Shown here one piece after another: positions 39,733-59,813 of a DNA stretch of 64,000 nt. Origin of the DNA: a bacterium. Lineage in GTDB: Bacteria; Patescibacteriota; Microgenomatia; UBA1400; UBA12108. Both the position numbers and the translations under genes were made by a program. The stretch's first letter is position 1. Every line of letters begins with the position of its first letter. The DNA lies in the NCBI GenBank assembly GCA_043827085.1, contig JBDRPO010000016.1, positions 42,752 through 106,751 on the forward strand, written 5' to 3'. The notes beneath the pieces are model-generated. The model saw only the letters and a list, made by a program, of their open reading frames with translations. It was not told where the DNA came from and searched no databases.

Positions 39733-41133
39733 ATGCTACGCACGCTCATCAAGGAAACAATCAAAAAAATCGGCGAGACAGTCACCCTAAAAGGGTGGAT
39801 AAGTACAAAAAGAGATCATGGGAAACTTACATTTATTGACCTCCGCGACCGGACCGGAACCATCCAGTGTGTTGGCTATCAAAAAATGGGGGAGTTAACT
39901 ACAGAATCTGTAATTGAAGTGACAGGAATTCTGAAAGAACGAAACGATAAGAGTATCAATCCTGAGTTACCTTTGGGAACCATAGAAATAGATGTTCAAG
40001 AGTATGTGGTGGCAGGAAAAGCAACCGAACTACCTATCCACGTTAAAGAAGCCGGTGGTAATGACGTGTCAGAAGATATTCGCCTACGCTATCGCTACCT
40101 CGATTTACGTCGTGATCACATGCAAAAAATTATGCGACTCAGGTCTATCTATTCGCATACTTTACGTCAAGCCTTTATAGATCGAGATTTTGTAGAAGTA
40201 GAAACACCCATTCTTTCGAAAGCGACCATGGAAGGTGCACGCGACTTTCTCGTTCCCTCCCGTTTTCAGCACGGTAAATTCTATGCATTACCCCAAAGTC
40301 CTCAACAATATAAACAACTTCTCATGGTAGCCGGGGTAGATCGTTATTTCCAATTCGCGAGGTGTTTCAGAGATGAAGATTTGCGTGCAGATCGCGGGTT
40401 TGAGTTTACGCAGGTTGATGTAGAGATGAGCTTTTTGACGAGTGACGAAATTCGAGGGACAATGGAAGATGTTGTTAAGCAAGCAGTAAAAGCCGTTGGT
40501 GGCAAACTCAAAGATGAAGTCTTCCCAGTATATTCGTTTGCTGATGTTATCAAACAATTTGGCACCGATAAATTTGATCTCCGTACAGAATCAGAAAAAA
40601 ATGATGGAACATTAGCATTTGCCTGGGTTACTCGGTTTCCATTCTTTAAAAAAATTGACAAAGGGGATGTCGCCGAACTCCGGGACGGCAAGAGTGGGTG
40701 GACCTTTACCCACAATCCATTCGGAGCTCCAATTCCTGAACACACACAGTGGCATCTAAAAGGTGAGCACATTGAAGAAATTATCGCCGATCAATACGAC
40801 TTAGTATGCAATGGGTACGAAGTAGGTGGGGGTAGTATCAGAGCTCACAAACCAGAACTTCTGGCCGCTACTTATCGGACCATGGGTTATACCGAAGCAG
40901 AAACTCAAGCTAGTATTGGTCATATGCTTGAGGCGTTCTCGTATGGTGTGCCACCTCACGGTGGAATTGCCTTGGGACTTGATCGTCAAATAATGTTATT
41001 GGCGAACGAAAATTCACTCAAAGAAGCAATTGCTTTCCCCATGACATCAACAGGGCATACTGCAGTCATGGATGGTCCGAATATTGCCACGGACGAACAG
41101 CTGAAAGAATTAGGGTTAAAAATAAATAAGTAA
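39733..41133 (+). CDS. aspS: Aspartate--tRNA ligase, compact form lacking the GAD insertion domain
   Basis: Class IIb motifs are present (FRDEDLRADRGFEFTQVDVEMSF; GGGSIRAH; GLDRQIMLL). At 466 aa with no GAD insert, it could alternatively be AsnRS-like, but the anticodon-binding N-terminus looks more AspRS-like. Confidence 0.7.
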   Translation: MLRTLIKETIKKIGETVTLKGWISTKRDHGKLTFIDLRDRTGTIQCVGYQKMGELTTESVIEVTGILKERNDKSINPELPLGTIEIDVQEYVVAGKATELPIHVKEAGGNDVSEDIRLRYRYLDLRRDHMQKIMRLRSIYSHTLRQAFIDRDFVEVETPILSKATMEGARDFLVPSRFQHGKFYALPQSPQQYKQLLMVAGVDRYFQFARCFRDEDLRADRGFEFTQVDVEMSFLTSDEIRGTMEDVVKQAVKAVGGKLKDEVFPVYSFADVIKQFGTDKFDLRTESEKNDGTLAFAWVTRFPFFKKIDKGDVAELRDGKSGWTFTHNPFGAPIPEHTQWHLKGEHIEEIIADQYDLVCNGYEVGGGSIRAHKPELLAATYRTMGYTEAETQASIGHMLEAFSYGVPPHGGIALGLDRQIMLLANENSLKEAIAFPMTSTGHTAVMDGPNIATDEQLKELGLKINK

Positions 41134-43727: not shown

Positions 43728-43805
43728 CCTGCTAAGGAGATCCTGGCCAGCGGCCAAGATGTTTAGTCGACTTCAAAATACAATTGGAAGATCAGGTCAG
43801 ACCCT
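43721..43805. repeat. REP/MITE-like element copy E lying between convergent gltX and proS and overlapping both stop codons
   Basis: GGTCTGACCTGCTAAGGAGATCC-[TGGCCAGCGGCCA hairpin]-GATGTTTAGTCGACTTCAAAATACAAT...CAGGTCAGACCCT. Confidence 0.8.
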
Positions 43806-45057
43806 ACAGTTGCGACTTTGCGATTTCCACCAACTCTTCCACACTCACGAGCTTTGTCTCTTTCTCACTCCTCATCTTCACCTCAATTTTATCTTGGGTT
43901 TTAGTAGACACGACGGCACGGATCGGACAGCCGATCATATCCGCCTCCCCTAGTTTCTGTCCTGCCCCCACATCCGTCCGGTCGTCATACAATACTTCAA
44001 CTCCAGCCCTGATCAGTTCTTGGTAAACCTCATCTGCTTTTTTGATCACACTTTCATCATTCGTATTGATACTCGCCAGGTGGACGGTAAATGGAGCAAC
44101 CGCCGCCGGCCAGACGATCCCTCGCTCATCATTAAACTTCTCGACCACGACGCCCATCGTCCGCGAGATCCCAATCCCGTAACAACCCATGATTGGGTAG
44201 ATCTTTTCCCCCTTTTCGTTGGGGATCGTGAGTTCAAATGCCTTGGTATACTTTTGTCCCAAATCAAATACATTCCCCACCTCCGATGCCATTGCACTCT
44301 TGAGCTTATCTTTCTTGCAGATCGGGCAGTCGTCGCCGATTTTATATTTCTTAATATCATCCGTATTTACGCAGTAATCACACTTATCGCAGTACAAAAC
44401 TGGGGCTTCTCCTGCGTCGGTCAGTACTTCAAACTCGTAGGAGACTTTCTCGGTAAACGCCCCGCCCGATGCCTCCGTTGCTTTAGCAGTCAGTCCCATC
44501 CGCTTAAACACTCGTAAATACGCTGCCTTTGCCTCAGCATAAAACTTATCAAAATCCTCTTGGGTCGCGTGCCAGCTATACATATCTTTCATCAAAAACT
44601 CGCGCCCCCGCAGGATCCCAGATTTACTCCTCAATTCATCTCGGAACTTAGAGTTGATATGGTAGATTGCGAGGGGAAGGTCTTTGCTACTGTGGATCCA
44701 CTCTTTGGCGAGGGGCGTGACCGTCTCCTCGTTACTTTGGGCGAGTGCATACTCGCGGTCGGTCCGGCTTTTCACTTTAAACAAAACGTCGATCTTGTCC
44801 CAGCCTCCAGTTTGTTTCCAAAGTGCGGAGGGGTGGAGGATCGGCATCAGGACTTCTTGCCCGCCGATTGTGTTCATTTCTTCCCTTATAATTTGTGATA
44901 TCTTATCAAGGACTCGCTTCCCCAGTGGCAAATAGGTATAGACCCCGGCCATCACTTGTCGCACAAACCCAGCCTGTACCAGGAGTTTATGGTTCATCGT
45001 TTCCGCTGCCGCCGGGGCAGTCTTGAGGGTTTTGACAAACATTTTTGAGTACTTCAT
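43804..45057 (-). CDS. proS: Proline--tRNA ligase (bacterial-type core without the INS editing domain)
   Basis: Class II motifs are present (FRDE...RGREFLMKD; GCYGIGISR) and the N-terminal sequence (VRQVMAGVYTYLPLG) is ProRS-like. The start is at the MKYSKMF ATG, which sits behind an AAGGAG site. Confidence 0.8.
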   Translation of the reverse strand: MKYSKMFVKTLKTAPAAAETMNHKLLVQAGFVRQVMAGVYTYLPLGKRVLDKISQIIREEMNTIGGQEVLMPILHPSALWKQTGGWDKIDVLFKVKSRTDREYALAQSNEETVTPLAKEWIHSSKDLPLAIYHINSKFRDELRSKSGILRGREFLMKDMYSWHATQEDFDKFYAEAKAAYLRVFKRMGLTAKATEASGGAFTEKVSYEFEVLTDAGEAPVLYCDKCDYCVNTDDIKKYKIGDDCPICKKDKLKSAMASEVGNVFDLGQKYTKAFELTIPNEKGEKIYPIMGCYGIGISRTMGVVVEKFNDERGIVWPAAVAPFTVHLASINTNDESVIKKADEVYQELIRAGVEVLYDDRTDVGAGQKLGEADMIGCPIRAVVSTKTQDKIEVKMRSEKETKLVSVEELVEIAKSQL

Positions 45058-45067
45058 ATTGGGCTCC

Positions 45068-45403
45068 TTAGTATAATTTTCCGCCAACTATTGCTTCGTT
45101 TCTATCTGGTACTATCAGTATACACTCGTGATCCTCATCAGGCACCCCAAGCGTCAATATTTCCGACTGGAATGGTCCTATTTGGCGGGGAGGGAAGTTT
45201 ACTACCCCCAACACCAACTTATTCATCAGTTGCCCCTTTGTATAGTGCTTGACCAACTGAGCACTAGACACTTTAATCCCTATTTCAGCTCCAAAATCTA
45301 CTTTCAGTTTATAAGAAGGTTTTCTGGCCTCAGGGAAATCCTCAACCGCCACAATTTTTCCCACTCGGATGTCCAGCTTTGTAAAATCATCATATGTTGC
45401 CAT
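45068..45403 (-). CDS. tRNA-binding protein (CsaA/Trbp111/EMAP-like OB-fold)
   Basis: LDIRVGKIV...E.HP.A.KL..L.VD.G is a MetRS-C-terminal-like tRNA-binding domain pattern. Confidence 0.75.
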   Translation of the reverse strand: MATYDDFTKLDIRVGKIVAVEDFPEARKPSYKLKVDFGAEIGIKVSSAQLVKHYTKGQLMNKLVLGVVNFPPRQIGPFQSEILTLGVPDEDHECILIVPDRNEAIVGGKLY

Positions 45404-45600
45404 ACATTTGTCCTCAATAATTTAAATGACAAAAAACCCTTGCACATCCCCAAAAAGGAACATGCAAGGGTCTTTTCAGACGGTACCACCTCGCTATTTA
45501 CTTCATTACTGCGTCTCGTGCAGCCTACGTAGTGCTCATCGCACCCAGCTCCAGGGCGGGAACCCTTTCATCGCTTTGTCACTTTTTAGACATCCATGAA
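45404..45600 (-). promoter_or_regulatory. Probable T-box riboswitch leader controlling the CsaA-proS operon
   Basis: The minus-strand leader carries AAAUAGCGAGGUGGUACCGUCU, which matches the T-box core GGUGGUACCG. Next comes a GUCU-GAAA-AGAC mini-helix, then a terminator (CCCUUGCA...UGCAAGGG + UUUUUUG) whose 5' strand can alternatively pair with the T-box 5' side (antiterminator). A K-turn-like GCG-A-UGA / AGA-CGC motif sits at the putative Stem I base. Confidence 0.5.
45431..45477. terminator. Bidirectional intrinsic terminator hairpin (8-bp stem CCCTTGCA/TGCAAGGG), part of the T-box expression platform on the minus strand
   Basis: Stem-loop with a T-run on the minus strand (GGGTTTTTTGTC) and TCTTTT on the plus strand. 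Confidence 0.6.
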
Positions 45601-45601
45601 T

Positions 45602-46252
45602 TCATTGTACAGTATAAGTCAATAACTCCTCAAACAGGGGCTCGACATCTTCTTCGCTGATCTCATCTAAATCTACATTTGTTTGCCTTCTAACTTGCTC
45701 TTCCAATTTATACAAAAAGTCATACCACCCCATCTCTCGCCCATACCTCCTCTGTAAGTCCTCGATCCTCTTTTTTAGTGTAGTCACCCCAGTAGGCACC
45801 ACCCGCACATCACAATACGACAAAATCTTTCCCCCCCAACCTTGCTCCAGTAATTGCGCTGGGTTATCGCTCGCATACCCCGCATGTTCCCGTCCCATTA
45901 TCAGATTAGTGTCATCTTGCCCAAGCTCTGCGACGATCTTAGTCGTTGCTTCATGAGCATTAGTACCATATTTTTCTCTGTACTTTGCTTGTATTTTCTT
46001 CCAGTATTCTAAATTCTCAATTTGTATGATGTTTTTCCCCAAATCAAACTTCACAATATTTCCCATATCATGCAGGAGGAGTGACCGCATGACCAGATCT
46101 CGGTCGATTCCACCCTTCCATCCGTCAACAATTAACTTACCTACTCCCGCCACCCGCAGCATGTGTGTCGCCAACTGCGGCATAATATGATACTTGGCGT
46201 ACACATCTTGGATCGTCATACGTGTAGTATATAATGAATTCATGGCCACCAA
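45602..46252 (-). CDS. HD-domain phosphohydrolase
   Basis: H...LLHDMGN...D pattern of the HD superfamily. Confidence 0.65.
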   Translation of the reverse strand: MVAMNSLYTTRMTIQDVYAKYHIMPQLATHMLRVAGVGKLIVDGWKGGIDRDLVMRSLLLHDMGNIVKFDLGKNIIQIENLEYWKKIQAKYREKYGTNAHEATTKIVAELGQDDTNLIMGREHAGYASDNPAQLLEQGWGGKILSYCDVRVVPTGVTTLKKRIEDLQRRYGREMGWYDFLYKLEEQVRRQTNVDLDEISEEDVEPLFEELLTYTVQ

Positions 46253-47823: not shown

Positions 47824-47896
47824 TGCCGGGTCGCTAATGGTAAGCAGCGTGACTCTGAATCACGTAATCTAGGTCCGAATCCTAGCCCGGCAACCA
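47824..47896 (+). tRNA. tRNA-Gln (anticodon CUG) candidate with atypical features
   Basis: Cloverleaf by eye: acceptor UGCCGGG/CCCGGCA with U1-A72 as in bacterial tRNA-Gln, U8, D-loop with GG, and anticodon stem CGUGA/UCACG with loop CUCUGAA (U33, CUG, A37). The T-arm is CUAGG-UCCGAAU-CCUAG and CCA is encoded. Irregular points are C55 instead of U55 and a 3-bp D-stem with a 2-nt connector. Confidence 0.45.
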
Positions 47897-58535: not shown

Positions 58536-59813
58536 ATGAAGAAAGGCATTAAAGAATTTTTCAAAAGTGTCGGACCCGGAGTGATCACGGGTGCCGCCGA
58601 CGACGACCCCTCTGGCATCGCTACCTACAGCCAAACTGGTGCTCAGTTTGGTCTTGGCCAACTATGGACTGCCGTTTACATGCTTCCGTTTCTAGTTTCA
58701 GTCCAAGAAGCCTGTGCTCGGATTGGTGCCGTCACCGGCCATGGCTTATCTTACGCCGTCAAAAAGCACTTTAGTCGTAAAGTGCTAATGTTCATGGTGA
58801 TTTTAGTTTTGGTTTCCAATACGATCAACATCGGTGCCAACATCGGTGCTATGGCTGCCTCGCTCCAGCTTGTGACTCCCCTTACCTTCACCCCCCTTGC
58901 CCTCATTGTCACCGTGTCAATTCTGATCCTCGAAATTTTTACCTCCTACCGTGTTTACTCTCGCCTACTCAAGTGGCTCGCCCTCACTCTCTTTGCCTAT
59001 CCACTCACTCTCTTCATCATTCAAGCGTCTTGGGCAGCTATCCTTCCCGCTACCTTTATCCCACATATTGAGTTTAACTTTGCCTTTTTCTTTATCATCA
59101 CCGGCGTTCTCGGGACCACTATCTCACCTTTTATGTTTTTCTGGCAAGCATCGGAGGAGGTAGAAGAAGAACGGTCTCAAAAAATGATCAAATATGGTAT
59201 TCCTCACCTCACCGCTCGTTTCATCCGCTCTCTCCGCTTTGACAATTTTATCGGTATGCTCTTTTCCGAACTTGGCACCTGGTCGATCATCATTGTCGCC
59301 GCCACGGTCTTGCATAATAGTGGGGTAACCGATATTAGGACTGCCGCCGACGCCGCAGCTGCCCTCGAACCTCTCGTCCACACTTTTCCCAATGCTGGTT
59401 ATTTGTCCAAATTATTGTTTACTACCGGTATCGTGGGTTTGGGATTTCTCGCTATTCCCGTTATGTCTGGCTCCGCTGCCTATGCCCTCGCCGAAGCCTT
59501 CAATTTTCGTGACGGTTTAAACCTGAAACTAAAGCAAGCACACGGCTTTTATGGCGCCATCACTCTTGCGACTTTGATTGGTCTCCTCATCAACTATATA
59601 GGGATCGATCCGATGAAAGCTCTGGTCTATGCCGCCGTCCTCAATGGTTTTGTAGCCGTCCCGCTCATCTTCCTCATCGGCAAAATCAGCAGTGATAAAA
59701 ATATCATGGGAAAATACAGGAGCGGGTTTCTTTCCCGCTCCTTTATTTGGTTGACTTTTATCGGTATGTCTTTTGCCGCTGCCGGGACCATCTACATGCT
59801 CTTAGTTCGCTAA
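58536..59813 (+). CDS. NRAMP-family divalent metal transporter (MntH-like)
   Basis: GPGVITGAADDDPSGIATYSQ...GAQFG and ~11 TM helices. Confidence 0.75.
   Translation: MKKGIKEFFKSVGPGVITGAADDDPSGIATYSQTGAQFGLGQLWTAVYMLPFLVSVQEACARIGAVTGHGLSYAVKKHFSRKVLMFMVILVLVSNTINIGANIGAMAASLQLVTPLTFTPLALIVTVSILILEIFTSYRVYSRLLKWLALTLFAYPLTLFIIQASWAAILPATFIPHIEFNFAFFFIITGVLGTTISPFMFFWQASEEVEEERSQKMIKYGIPHLTARFIRSLRFDNFIGMLFSELGTWSIIIVAATVLHNSGVTDIRTAADAAAALEPLVHTFPNAGYLSKLLFTTGIVGLGFLAIPVMSGSAAYALAEAFNFRDGLNLKLKQAHGFYGAITLATLIGLLINYIGIDPMKALVYAAVLNGFVAVPLIFLIGKISSDKNIMGKYRSGFLSRSFIWLTFIGMSFAAAGTIYMLLVR

Follow-up and report, generated by a model that had tools for sequence, protein, structure and literature searches.

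A probable reduced T-box leader ahead of a csaA-like/proS operon in a Microgenomates bacterium

The window analysed here (the whole 64,000-nt stretch of the contig) carries on its minus strand an operon that opens with a csaA-like gene and continues with proS. The genes and the site from which they might be transcribed are as follows.

45604..45633, minus strand: promoter-like site with -35 TTGAGG (45628-45633), an 18-nt spacer and -10 TACAAT (45604-45609)
45068..45403, minus strand: csaA-like gene, first gene of the operon, encoding a free-standing tRNA-binding domain protein of 111 aa
43804..45057, minus strand: proS, encoding a prolyl-tRNA synthetase of 417 aa without the INS editing domain

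The promoter-like site lies inside the last codons of an upstream HD-domain gene and agrees with the consensus at 9 of 12 positions; the equivalent position reads TTGACG-18-TATAAT in the related loci L003, L008, L011, L014, L057 and L077. The transcript probably starts near 45597. The csaA-like product matched PF01588 (47.9 bits), TIGR02222 CsaA (144 bits) and NF007495, 'tRNA-binding protein' (147 bits against a cutoff of 117). Its ribosome-binding site, GAGGA at 45411-45415, lies downstream of a terminator and is not paired with it, and the leader has a terminator with a U-run instead of a platform for Shine-Dalgarno sequestration. The proS ATG is at 45055-45057, with its Shine-Dalgarno sequence AAGGAG overlapping the csaA stop codon, and homologues begin MKYSKMF. 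Between the promoter-like site and csaA, the following leader elements were delineated.

45547..45575, minus strand: ultrashort Stem I, 29 nt, consisting of a K-turn, a 4-bp helix and an apical loop
45558..45560, minus strand: proposed specifier codon CCC (Pro), followed by the purine G 45557 and then by the 3' strand of the helix
45531..45545, minus strand: hairpin H2, 5 bp, with the pentaloop GAUGA (45536-45540)
45508..45524, minus strand: hairpin H3, 5 bp, with the 7-nt loop ACGAGAC, followed by UAA
45495..45507, minus strand: purine-rich linker AAUGAAGUAAAUA, from comparison with the consensus line of Rfam model RF00230
45464..45494, minus strand: antiterminator (T-box discriminator core), made of A1, a 7-nt bulge and A2
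45431..45475, minus strand: intrinsic terminator as a predicted fold, a hairpin of about 20 bp with a U-run (45431-45436) on its 3' side

The first-pass annotation had seen a T-box core upstream of the csaA-like gene, and this core is indeed present on the minus strand, where the sequence reads ...AAAUAGCGAGGUGGUACCGUCUGAAAAGACCCUUGC... and includes GGUGGUACCG at 45481-45490. Within 45431-45575 the bulge UGGUACC (45482-45488) is held between helices A1 and A2, the complete antiterminator being GCGAGG-UGGUACC-GUCUGAAAAGAC-CCUUGC. A1 is formed by GCGAGG (45489-45494) and CCUUGC (45464-45469), A2 by GUCU-GAAA-AGAC, and the UGGU of the bulge would be able to pair with the ACCA 3' end of a tRNA. 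The strong intrinsic terminator that had been reported close to the start codon was also recovered, as 20 pairs at 45475-45432 with a U7 tail, about 28 nt upstream of the csaA ATG (45403) and with an energy of about -30 kcal/mol. Its 5' strand includes the 3' strands of both A2 and A1, so the two folds overlap and compete; the alternative pairing with GCGAG proposed earlier holds as GCGAGG/CCUUGC, in which CCUUGC serves A1 and the terminator alike. The terminator is the predicted minimum-free-energy state (-29.5 to -31.6 kcal/mol, versus -9.5 kcal/mol for the antiterminator). Thus, as in class I T-boxes, the 3' strands of A1 and A2 are taken up by a more stable terminator, mutually exclusive with the antiterminator.

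Upstream of this switch lies a short Stem I. Its K-turn has the layout AGC|GAU|GA|A|AGGG...CCCU|G|GA|GCU, with the C-helix AGC/GCU, a GAU bulge, and tandem G·A and A·G pairs formed by GA 45568-45569 and GA 45550-45551. The base of the stem thereby carries a K-turn, as expected of a T-box, and is nearly identical to the RF00230 consensus aagCgaUGAaagGG...CCcugGAGc. The K-turn pairing originally suggested (GCG with the CGC of AGA-CGC) was discarded because that CGC belongs to the separate, covarying hairpin H3; on its 3' side, the K-turn strand in fact pairs with CCCUGGAGCU (45547-45556). Above the K-turn, the 4-bp helix AGGG/CCCU is topped by the apical loop UUCCCG (45557-45562). Of the CCU/CCC triplets noticed earlier at the 5' side, where no specifier had been placed, the CCC at 45558-45560 falls in this loop. 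Stem I and a specifier loop can therefore be folded, with a Pro codon in the canonical T-box register beside a canonical K-turn, and the order of codon, purine, CCcu, gGA and Gc agrees with the RF00230 consensus. Two observations count against this assignment: an alternative Pro frame, CCG or CCA, lies one base 3' in the loop, and scans for tRNA genes in the window and in 60 of the loci recovered none for tRNA-Pro. The same 60 loci yielded no tRNA-Asp gene either.

The region between Stem I and the antiterminator departs most from known T-boxes. By position, H2 would be a truncated Stem II without an S-turn: it is a plain hairpin of 5-6 bp lacking an AGUA/GAA internal loop, it has 6 bp in most relatives, and its GAUGA pentaloop is invariant. 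In the related leader L012, cmscan places an identical hairpin on the Stem II positions of RF00230. H3, in whose loop CGAGA is invariant, may be either Stem IIA or a displaced Stem III; its counterpart in L012, CGG-AAGUCAA-CCG-UAA, is aligned by cmscan to Stem IIA/B. No covarying partner was found for the H3 loop that would indicate a IIA/B pseudoknot, and inspection by eye revealed no complementary, covarying pairing of the H2 or H3 loops with the linker. The linker AAUGAAGUAAAUA matches the canonical flanks of Stem III (AGuG ... AAaUa) with no hairpin between them: directly 5' of A1 the window reads GAAGU-AAAUA, and H3 lies some 13 nt further upstream. The long Stem I with AG bulge and distal loop, which forms the double T-loop platform, is likewise absent, as Stem I ends in the specifier loop; for L012, cmscan deletes 84 Stem I positions of the RF00230 model. 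At its base, A2 has G-C in place of G•U in 14 of 14 window-type leaders (pair 127-179) and A-U in L012, L005 and L019. [quoted passage not shown] The absence of all four counts against reading the window leader as a T-box.

Against the expectation of a significant match, RF00230 (gathering score 93 bits) did not detect the window leader. At the gathering threshold, cmscan of the whole window returned only a tRNA-Gln, and at E <= 10 the 331 nt of 45350-45680 gave noise without RF00230. These noise matches were a terminator-like one to a Wolbachia sRNA and one to a snoRNA. Full-length matches below the threshold were obtained for two related leaders, L012 (34.8 bits, E = 3e-4) and L019 (25.3 bits). 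The 10-mer GGUGGUACCG is by itself not evidence, because two further exact copies occur in the window at Gly-Gly-Thr codons in the coding sequences of recA and miaA. Other copies of GGTGGTACCG in the window (with at most 1 mismatch) all fall within long open reading frames. A heuristic scan for A1-UGGNAYC-A2 over the window and 136 loci gave no further intergenic candidate in the window; one match near 58839 on the minus strand, antisense inside an open reading frame, was judged to be due to chance.

Another 18 distinct loci, from genomes that are Microgenomates/Woesebacteria-like, carry the same leader ahead of proS, in three structural variants. Window-type leaders occur in L001, L003, L004, L006, L007, L008, L009, L011, L014, L057, L077, L088 and L098, with repeated copies in L093 and in L106/L116/L122, while L005, L012, L019 and L026 carry variant forms. 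Behind the leader the operon may be csaA-proS, proS alone, csaA-eamA-proS or ocd-csaA-proS. Given that six distinct loci (L011, L077, L093, L098, L019 and L026) have the leader directly before proS with no csaA, the leader tracks proS rather than csaA. In L012 and L005 it heads ocd-csaA-proS, where ocd encodes an ornithine cyclodeaminase (421 bits against a cutoff of 350), an enzyme that makes proline. We also scanned metagenomes for the pattern GATGAG...CGAGA...AGGTGGTAMCG. Among 57 matches there were 6 family members, of which only L098 was a distinct new sequence, and the pattern revealed no leader with the H2/H3 combination before any other type of gene. The remaining matches comprised one canonical human-gut T-box seen 13 times and matches resembling coding sequence.

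Across the 14 window-type leaders, compensatory changes were found in 16 of 28 base pairs, and 94.9% of cells were paired. On four of five measures no shuffle out of 500 came up to the observed value, and on the fifth 2 of 500 did; alignments slid as controls gave at most 6 compensatory pairs, and RNAalifold independently predicted the same helices. In related genomes, the leader as a whole is thus conserved and covaries beyond chance. Stem I is paired in 100% of cases across these sequences, with C-helix pair 7-59 seen as AU, GC and UA, pair 16-46 as GU, AU and GC, and pair 18-44 as GC and AU. Compensatory changes affect 5 of 6 pairs in H2, 5 of 5 in H3 and 3 pairs in A2; A1 is 98.8% paired, one of its pairs being seen as AU, GU and GC. 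The near-invariant positions are the loop CCC plus purine, the GA/GA of the K-turn and the UGGUA motif. The K-turn GA dinucleotides are invariant in all 14; L012 and L005 have a degenerate K-turn. These two keep the loop UUUCCCG even though their stem reads UUUGG/CCAAA. The apical loops of the Pro leaders, 6-7 nt long, end in CCCG or CCCA in 19 of 19 distinct leaders.

Leaders of the same build, with covarying stems, also precede aspS in L009, L143, L144 and L145, where aspS encodes an Asp-tRNA(Asn) ligase. Here the apical loop is CYGACAA, presenting GAC followed by A in 4 aspS leaders, and the bulge is UGGC; L013, whose 5' end is cut, has UGGC too. Every Pro leader has U as the variable base of UGGN, and 5 of 5 Asp leaders have C; this base switches together with the loop triplet, both following the identity of the synthetase. 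In other bacteria tRNA-Pro carries the discriminator base A73 and tRNA-Asp G73, which would fit UGGU and UGGC, respectively. On the other hand, the Asp codon lies one position further from the helix than the Pro codon, which counts against the T-box reading. A hairpin in the position of Stem III is present in L009 and L143 and absent from L144 and L145. Of the 24 Pro and Asp leaders, 23 have a hairpin and a U-run behind the antiterminator; the exception is L005, for which the sequence shown stops before the U-run. No leader was found upstream of aspS in the window or in the genomes of L003, L004, L011 and L012; in these, aspS sits in a recJ-peptidase-aspS operon.

Several other explanations were weighed. 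A T-box 10-mer lying next to an ordinary terminator by chance might be suspected from the extra GGUGGUACCG copies in coding sequence and from the silence of RF00230, but this idea is already refuted, and we give it practically no credence: a 145-nt element is conserved and covaries in many genomes, upstream of proS despite gene rearrangements. Leader-peptide attenuation, in which ribosomes stalling at Pro codons of a short open reading frame control the terminator, draws on an AUG inside GAUGA that opens an 11-codon frame with CCG CCC in the window (MKGFPPWSWVR). Yet this frame is not preceded by a Shine-Dalgarno sequence, its AUG is UUG in L006 and L008, its stop position is not conserved, and the Pro-Pro pair is lost in most relatives because a 1-nt U indel changes the frame. 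What is conserved is RNA helices rather than codons, so a leader peptide was ruled out and its probability is negligible.

The leader could instead be an autoregulatory operator that ProRS or the CsaA-like protein binds so as to favour termination, much as E. coli ThrRS binds a tRNA-like operator in its own mRNA. A first operon gene encoding a free-standing tRNA-binding domain would suit such a mechanism, as would Stem I with its 6-7-nt loop, which superficially resembles an anticodon arm. However, the loop holds the codon CCC and not the Pro anticodon, and so does not mimic the anticodon arm of tRNA-Pro. The leader also stands before proS without csaA in the six loci named above, the same build recurs before aspS with GAC and UGGC, and an operator would give no role to the K-turn in T-box register or to the UGGN bulge. 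We regard this explanation as very improbable. It is also unlikely, in our view, that the leader is a T-box relic whose remnants no longer bind tRNA, having lost this ability with the elbow platform, the S-turn and Stem III, and whose terminator is a constitutive or otherwise regulated attenuator. In its favour, the missing elements are those called essential for transcriptional T-boxes (PMC7583486), and the difference of a whole Stem III hairpin between L143 and L144 could mean relaxed constraint. Nevertheless, the elements that remain are under purifying selection, with near-invariant motifs and compensatory stems across relatives whose ProRS are 66-85% identical, and the triplet and the UGGN base co-switch between Pro and Asp leaders.

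We therefore consider it very likely, from the sequence comparisons, that the leader is a reduced tRNA-Pro-sensing T-box controlling the csaA-like/proS operon by transcription antitermination. The earlier suggestion of a T-box-type leader with antiterminator/terminator logic is supported by the 18 loci, the covariation, the register of the Pro codon and the aspS sisters. Under this model, transcription would start at the sigma-70-like promoter within the last codons of the HD-domain gene, and the emerging RNA would fold into an ultrashort Stem I presenting CCC and a purine, followed by H2, H3 and the purine-rich linker. By default the strong terminator would form, halting transcription about 28 nt short of csaA. 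Uncharged tRNA-Pro would pair through its anticodon with CCC and through its free 3' end, ACCA, with the UGGU of the 7-nt bulge, and these contacts would stabilise the weak A1/A2 antiterminator, which takes up the 5' strand of the terminator, so that RNA polymerase reads through. The leader would accordingly have to bind tRNA, sense its charge state, select the isoacceptor and reach sufficient affinity without an elbow platform, S-turn or Stem III, all of which we infer from its architecture. The all-G-C CCC/GGG duplex could possibly offset the missing elements; the same argument has been made for glycine T-boxes without Stem II. A bolder extension is that the CsaA-like protein, or a protein binding the K-turn, might supply the missing affinity.

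We classify the window leader as a variant of a known riboswitch class, one that would act by termination yet has an ultrashort Stem I. With class I T-boxes (RF00230, minimal Bacillus glyQS) it shares the near-consensus K-turn at the base of Stem I, a specifier codon and purine beside the first helix, a 7-nt UGGNACC bulge between A1 and A2, a far more stable and mutually exclusive intrinsic terminator, and an aminoacyl-tRNA synthetase as the regulated gene; like glyQS, it would form a codon-anticodon duplex of G-C pairs only, and it lacks a functional Stem II S-turn. In contrast to theirs, its Stem I runs straight into the specifier loop without an upper stem, AG bulge or distal loop, and therefore offers no tRNA-elbow platform. 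There is also no Stem III between its purine flanks, A2 has G-C rather than G•U at its base, and RF00230 is silent on the window and scores its relatives at 25-35 bits, against a gathering score of 93. In its specifier, placed in the apical loop of an ultrashort Stem I on a K-turn, the leader resembles the class II translational T-boxes (ileS, Mycobacterium/Nocardia). These ileS T-boxes of Actinobacteria have an ultrashort Stem I and no tRNA-elbow platform (PMC7583486). However, they sequester the Shine-Dalgarno sequence, whereas here an intrinsic terminator is followed by a free ribosome-binding site. They also keep Stem III and depend on a full Stem II S-turn and on a IIA/B pseudoknot clamping the codon-anticodon duplex; in our leader a hairpin of 5-6 bp replaces Stem II and Stem III is missing. 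Further differences lie in the phylum, here Patescibacteria, and in the specificities, Pro and Asp. The E. coli thrS operator likewise belongs to a synthetase gene and is a structured leader in which a hairpin resembles an anticodon arm, but it displays an anticodon, binds the enzyme and blocks translation, while the window leader displays a codon, a UGGN bulge and an antiterminator/terminator switch.

Transcriptional T-boxes are said to need a long Stem I platform for fast tRNA capture, variants with truncated Stem I to need Stem II, and Stem III to be indispensable (PMC7583486). A natural, conserved T-box coupled to a terminator and without all three would put these requirements to the test and, if the reading is right, would mean that co-transcriptional tRNA sensing does not always depend on the platform, the S-turn and Stem III. 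We lean, with little more than even confidence and from sequence comparison, towards the view that Microgenomates may carry an undescribed minimal class of termination T-boxes, which would sense tRNA-Pro or tRNA-Asp through an apical-loop codon on a K-turn plus UGGN and would lack the elbow platform, the S-turn and, in many members, Stem III. Counted from the K-turn through the antiterminator, such a leader spans about 112 nt, and the whole element 145 nt; it would give structural studies and synthetic biology a scaffold of very small size. Searches with the standard Rfam model would overlook leaders of this kind, as would the TBDB database, which uses that model. The literature searched contained no mention of T-boxes in candidate-phyla bacteria, to which T-box regulation would be extended if the reading is true. 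In these organisms, proline sensing would then be linked to a minimal ProRS, to a free-standing tRNA-binding protein and, in some genomes, to ornithine cyclodeaminase.

The genome behind the window is a Patescibacteria (CPR) genome of Microgenomates/Woesebacteria type; the nearest ProRS relatives in the GTDB genome collection belong to MAGs of that type, and a 120.6-kb NCBI MAG contig encodes a protein 100% identical to the window's AspRS. The leader precedes an operon in which the Shine-Dalgarno of proS overlaps the stop codon of csaA.

Features of the leader and its surroundings (window positions).
45602-46252, minus strand: HD-domain gene, upstream of the leader
198 nt, minus strand: spacer between the HD-domain and csaA-like genes, holding the leader
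45547-45575, minus strand: Stem I, AGC GAU GA A AGGG-UUCCCG-CCCU G GA GCU
45558-45560 plus 45557, minus strand: proposed specifier CCC and purine G, canonical position
45531-45545, minus strand: small hairpin H2, pentaloop GAUGA invariant
45508-45524, minus strand: small hairpin H3, loop with invariant CGAGA, then UAA
45495-45507, minus strand: linker GAAGUAAAUA, matching the purine flanks of Stem III (Rfam consensus AGuG-Stem III-AAaUa)
45068-45403, minus strand: csaA-like tRNA-binding protein (PF01588; NF007495 147 bits, cutoff 117)
43804-45057, minus strand: proS, 417 aa, without INS domain

Most leader copies carry a good promoter, TTGACG-18-TATAAT, which overlaps the closing codons of the HD gene. 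The promoter of the window leader (45604-45633, minus strand) is likewise embedded there (…LFEELLTYTVQ), and its -35 box coincides with Phe-Asp/Glu-Glu codons conserved among relatives. A tRNA-Gln(CUG) gene is located at 47824-47896 (plus strand) and, in about 18 of the relatives scanned, within a few kb upstream of proS.

The first-pass annotation had proposed a T-box riboswitch on the basis of a core sequence, a strong terminator before the csaA-like gene and competition with an antiterminator, and each of these holds. The core is present in the minus strand, within an antiterminator of two helices, A1 and A2, flanking a 7-nt bulge (GCGAGG / UGGUACC / GUCU-GAAA-AGAC / CCUUGC). Just 3' of it is the terminator-like hairpin, with 20 pairs and a U-run behind them (45475-45432); the 3' strands of A1 and A2 serve as its 5' strand, and the two folds are mutually exclusive. 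The terminator hairpin dominates the minimum-free-energy fold (z = -4.2), with predicted energies of about -30 kcal/mol against -9.5 for the antiterminator. As stand-alone proof the 10-mer GGUGGUACCG was rejected: it recurs exactly at two more places in the window, in recA and miaA, where it encodes Gly-Gly-Thr.

Stem I begins with a C-helix; a 3-nt bulge and tandem G·A/A·G pairs come next, and a 4-bp helix capped by an apical loop of 6-7 nt completes it. Its base, judged by sequence, is a textbook K-turn, nearly identical to the consensus of the Rfam T-box model RF00230 (aagCgaUGAaagGG ... CCcugGAGc). The K-turn suggested earlier was right in its GCGAUGA strand and wrong in pairing it with AGACGC, whose CGC belongs to H3, a hairpin that covaries on its own (CUGC/GCAG, CCUAC/GUAGG, CUGU/ACAG, CCAC/GUGG). 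The specifier, which had not been placed, can be assigned to CCC-G in the apical loop, where canonical T-boxes have the codon and a purine directly 5' of the CCcu strand. Every Pro leader (before proS) has a loop ending in CCC plus purine (UUUCCCG, UUCCCG, UCCCCA, AUCCCCA, CCCCA). The frame one base 3' would read CCG or CCA, which likewise code for Pro; CCC agrees with the canonical register and with the "C-rule", which concerns the third base of the specifier (PMC7583486, PMC7778990).

A scan of ProRS relatives gave 79 loci, in which the leader occurs in several gene contexts.

Gene contexts of the leader (L numbers are loci on relatives' contigs).
Upstream of csaA-proS: L001, L003, L004, L006, L007, L008, L014, L057
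Directly upstream of proS: L011, L077
Upstream of csaA-eamA-proS: L009

A metagenome pattern scan added L088 (whose sequence ends soon past the start codon), L093 (a copy of L077), L106, L116 and L122 (copies of L008) and, as a distinct new member of the family, L098, directly 5' of proS. The structure was proposed by eye on an eight-sequence alignment, in which 94.6% of cells are paired and 12 pairs are compensatory. On four of five measures the observed value was matched by 0/500 shuffles (by 34/500 on the fifth), slid controls had no more than 3 compensatory pairs, and RNAalifold independently predicted the same helices. Fourteen distinct leaders were then aligned with a covariance model built from this structure, to which the alignment is fitted: 94.9% of cells are paired, compensatory changes occur in 16 of the 28 pairs, and the observed value was matched by 0/500 shuffles on four of five measures and by 2/500 on the fifth. 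The model also found weaker variants, including L012 and L005, where the Stem I helix is changed to UUUGG/CCAAA, yet the loop still reads UUUCCCG. In both, the leader heads a three-gene operon, ornithine cyclodeaminase-csaA-proS (for the cyclodeaminase, NF005762 421 bits, cutoff 350).

The cyclodeaminase converts ornithine to proline; its gene comes first after the Pro leader in these two relatives (L012:2594-3652; same gene 5' of csaA in L005) and is a biosynthetic gene unexpected in a CPR genome. Hairpins are inserted in two Pro leaders: 25 nt in the 3' K-turn strand of Stem I at L004:3445-3591, with a loop (UCCCU) that again has CCC, and ~35 nt in the A2 loop at L098:1599-1753, otherwise typical, with Stem I helix AGAG/CUCU and loop AUCCCCA.

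Leaders of the same build precede aspS in L009, L143, L144 and L145, and in L013, whose copy is cut at the 5' end. These aspS genes encode Asp-tRNA(Asn) ligase (NF003483 449 bits, cutoff 353). The Stem I helix of these Asp leaders covaries (UCGU/ACGA, UCGU/GCGA, GUUUG/CAAAC), the apical loop is C(U/C)GACAA, GAC plus A, and the bulge reads UGGC instead of the UGGU of Pro leaders, so both the loop triplet and the UGGN base switch with the synthetase. In bacteria the discriminator base is A73 in tRNA-Pro and G73 in tRNA-Asp. Between GAC and the helix there is one nucleotide more than between CCC and the helix in Pro leaders; TBDB likewise permits specifier frames shifted by one position (PMC7778990).

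The contigs L143 and L144 encode the identical AspRS (P0122), and of their Asp T-box-like leaders (L143:1318-1500, L144:512-679) one has and the other lacks the entire Stem III hairpin (CCGCCAAUCGGCGG), so that nature has here deleted Stem III. The window aspS (39733-41133, plus strand) encodes a bacterial-type AspRS of 466 aa, and in close relatives (L137-L142) an archaeal-type non-discriminating enzyme of ~428 aa occupies that recJ-peptidase S11-aspS-hyp-gltX position, which looks like non-orthologous displacement; a related archaeal-type enzyme, in L013, shares ~33% identity with homologues of the window enzyme. Many AspRS homologues (P0004, P0006-P0008, P0011-P0013), 83-87% identical, are 620-624 aa long and carry a YbaK/ProX-type aminoacyl-tRNA editing domain (PF04073), which the window protein lacks.

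The variant leaders, the RF00230 matches in relatives and the Asp leaders each served as an independent test of the T-box reading. We conclude that the window leader is most likely an antitermination switch of T-box type with tRNA-Pro as its specific ligand. The analysis shows its elements, their mutual exclusivity, the covariation of the helices, and that specifier and UGGN vary together with the regulated gene; we infer that it binds tRNA, tells charged from uncharged tRNA, and which isoacceptor it reads. Neither the window nor the 60 loci scanned for tRNA genes yielded a tRNA-Pro gene. An operator bound by protein is disfavoured because what the loop presents is the codon and not the anticodon, because the leader also occurs without csaA, and because Asp leaders have the same build. 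A decayed T-box relic is likewise disfavoured, since loop, K-turn and UGGN bulge are under purifying selection. Attenuation by a leader peptide was rejected, as the small ORF of the window is not conserved, and chance co-occurrence is refuted by conservation and covariation. The observation is real, and its main interpretation, a T-box-type leader before the csaA-like/proS operon, is supported, with Stem I corrected and the specifier located. The leader tracks proS and not csaA. That a free-standing tRNA-binding protein is often inserted between leader and minimal ProRS is a secondary curiosity.

RF00230, by which the proposal was to be judged, returned no T-box for the window leader, either at the gathering score of 93 or at E <= 10 on a 331-nt stretch. 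Full-length, sub-threshold matches were obtained for the variants L019 (25.3 bits) and L012 (34.8 bits; E = 3e-4, with 42 kb searched). In L012 the alignment skips 84 model positions of Stem I and places H2 on Stem II, CGG...CCGUAA on Stem IIA/B and a long hairpin on Stem III, with T-box and A2 on their own model positions. A canonical-looking T-box caught by chance by the DNA pattern scan (L080:4373-4620, minus strand), identical or near-identical in 12 other loci from human-gut and other metagenomes, scored only 61 bits. A glmS ribozyme match (51.3 bits, gathering score 37) lies on a Patescibacteria contig (L019:7004-7223, minus strand).

[quoted passage not shown] The translational ileS T-boxes of Actinobacteria have a similar ultrashort Stem I with apical specifier, but they need Stem II with IIA/B, have retained Stem III and act by hiding the Shine-Dalgarno, whereas the window leader leaves the RBS free and its platform is a terminator. 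According to a 2020 review, transcriptional T-boxes generally require a long Stem I, truncated Stem I variants without Stem II barely bind tRNA, and Stem III is indispensable (PMC7583486). TBDB used RF00230 and a class II model, the latter run on Actinobacteria genomes and class I matches with truncated Stem I. In full-text searches no paper came up that brings T-boxes together with Patescibacteria, the Candidate Phyla Radiation or Microgenomates.

Glycine T-boxes are thought to manage without Stem II because GGC/GCC is all G-C; CCC/GGG is equally so, which may account for part of the reduced architecture. We regard the leader as a structurally new variant within a known riboswitch class and not as a system of a new kind.
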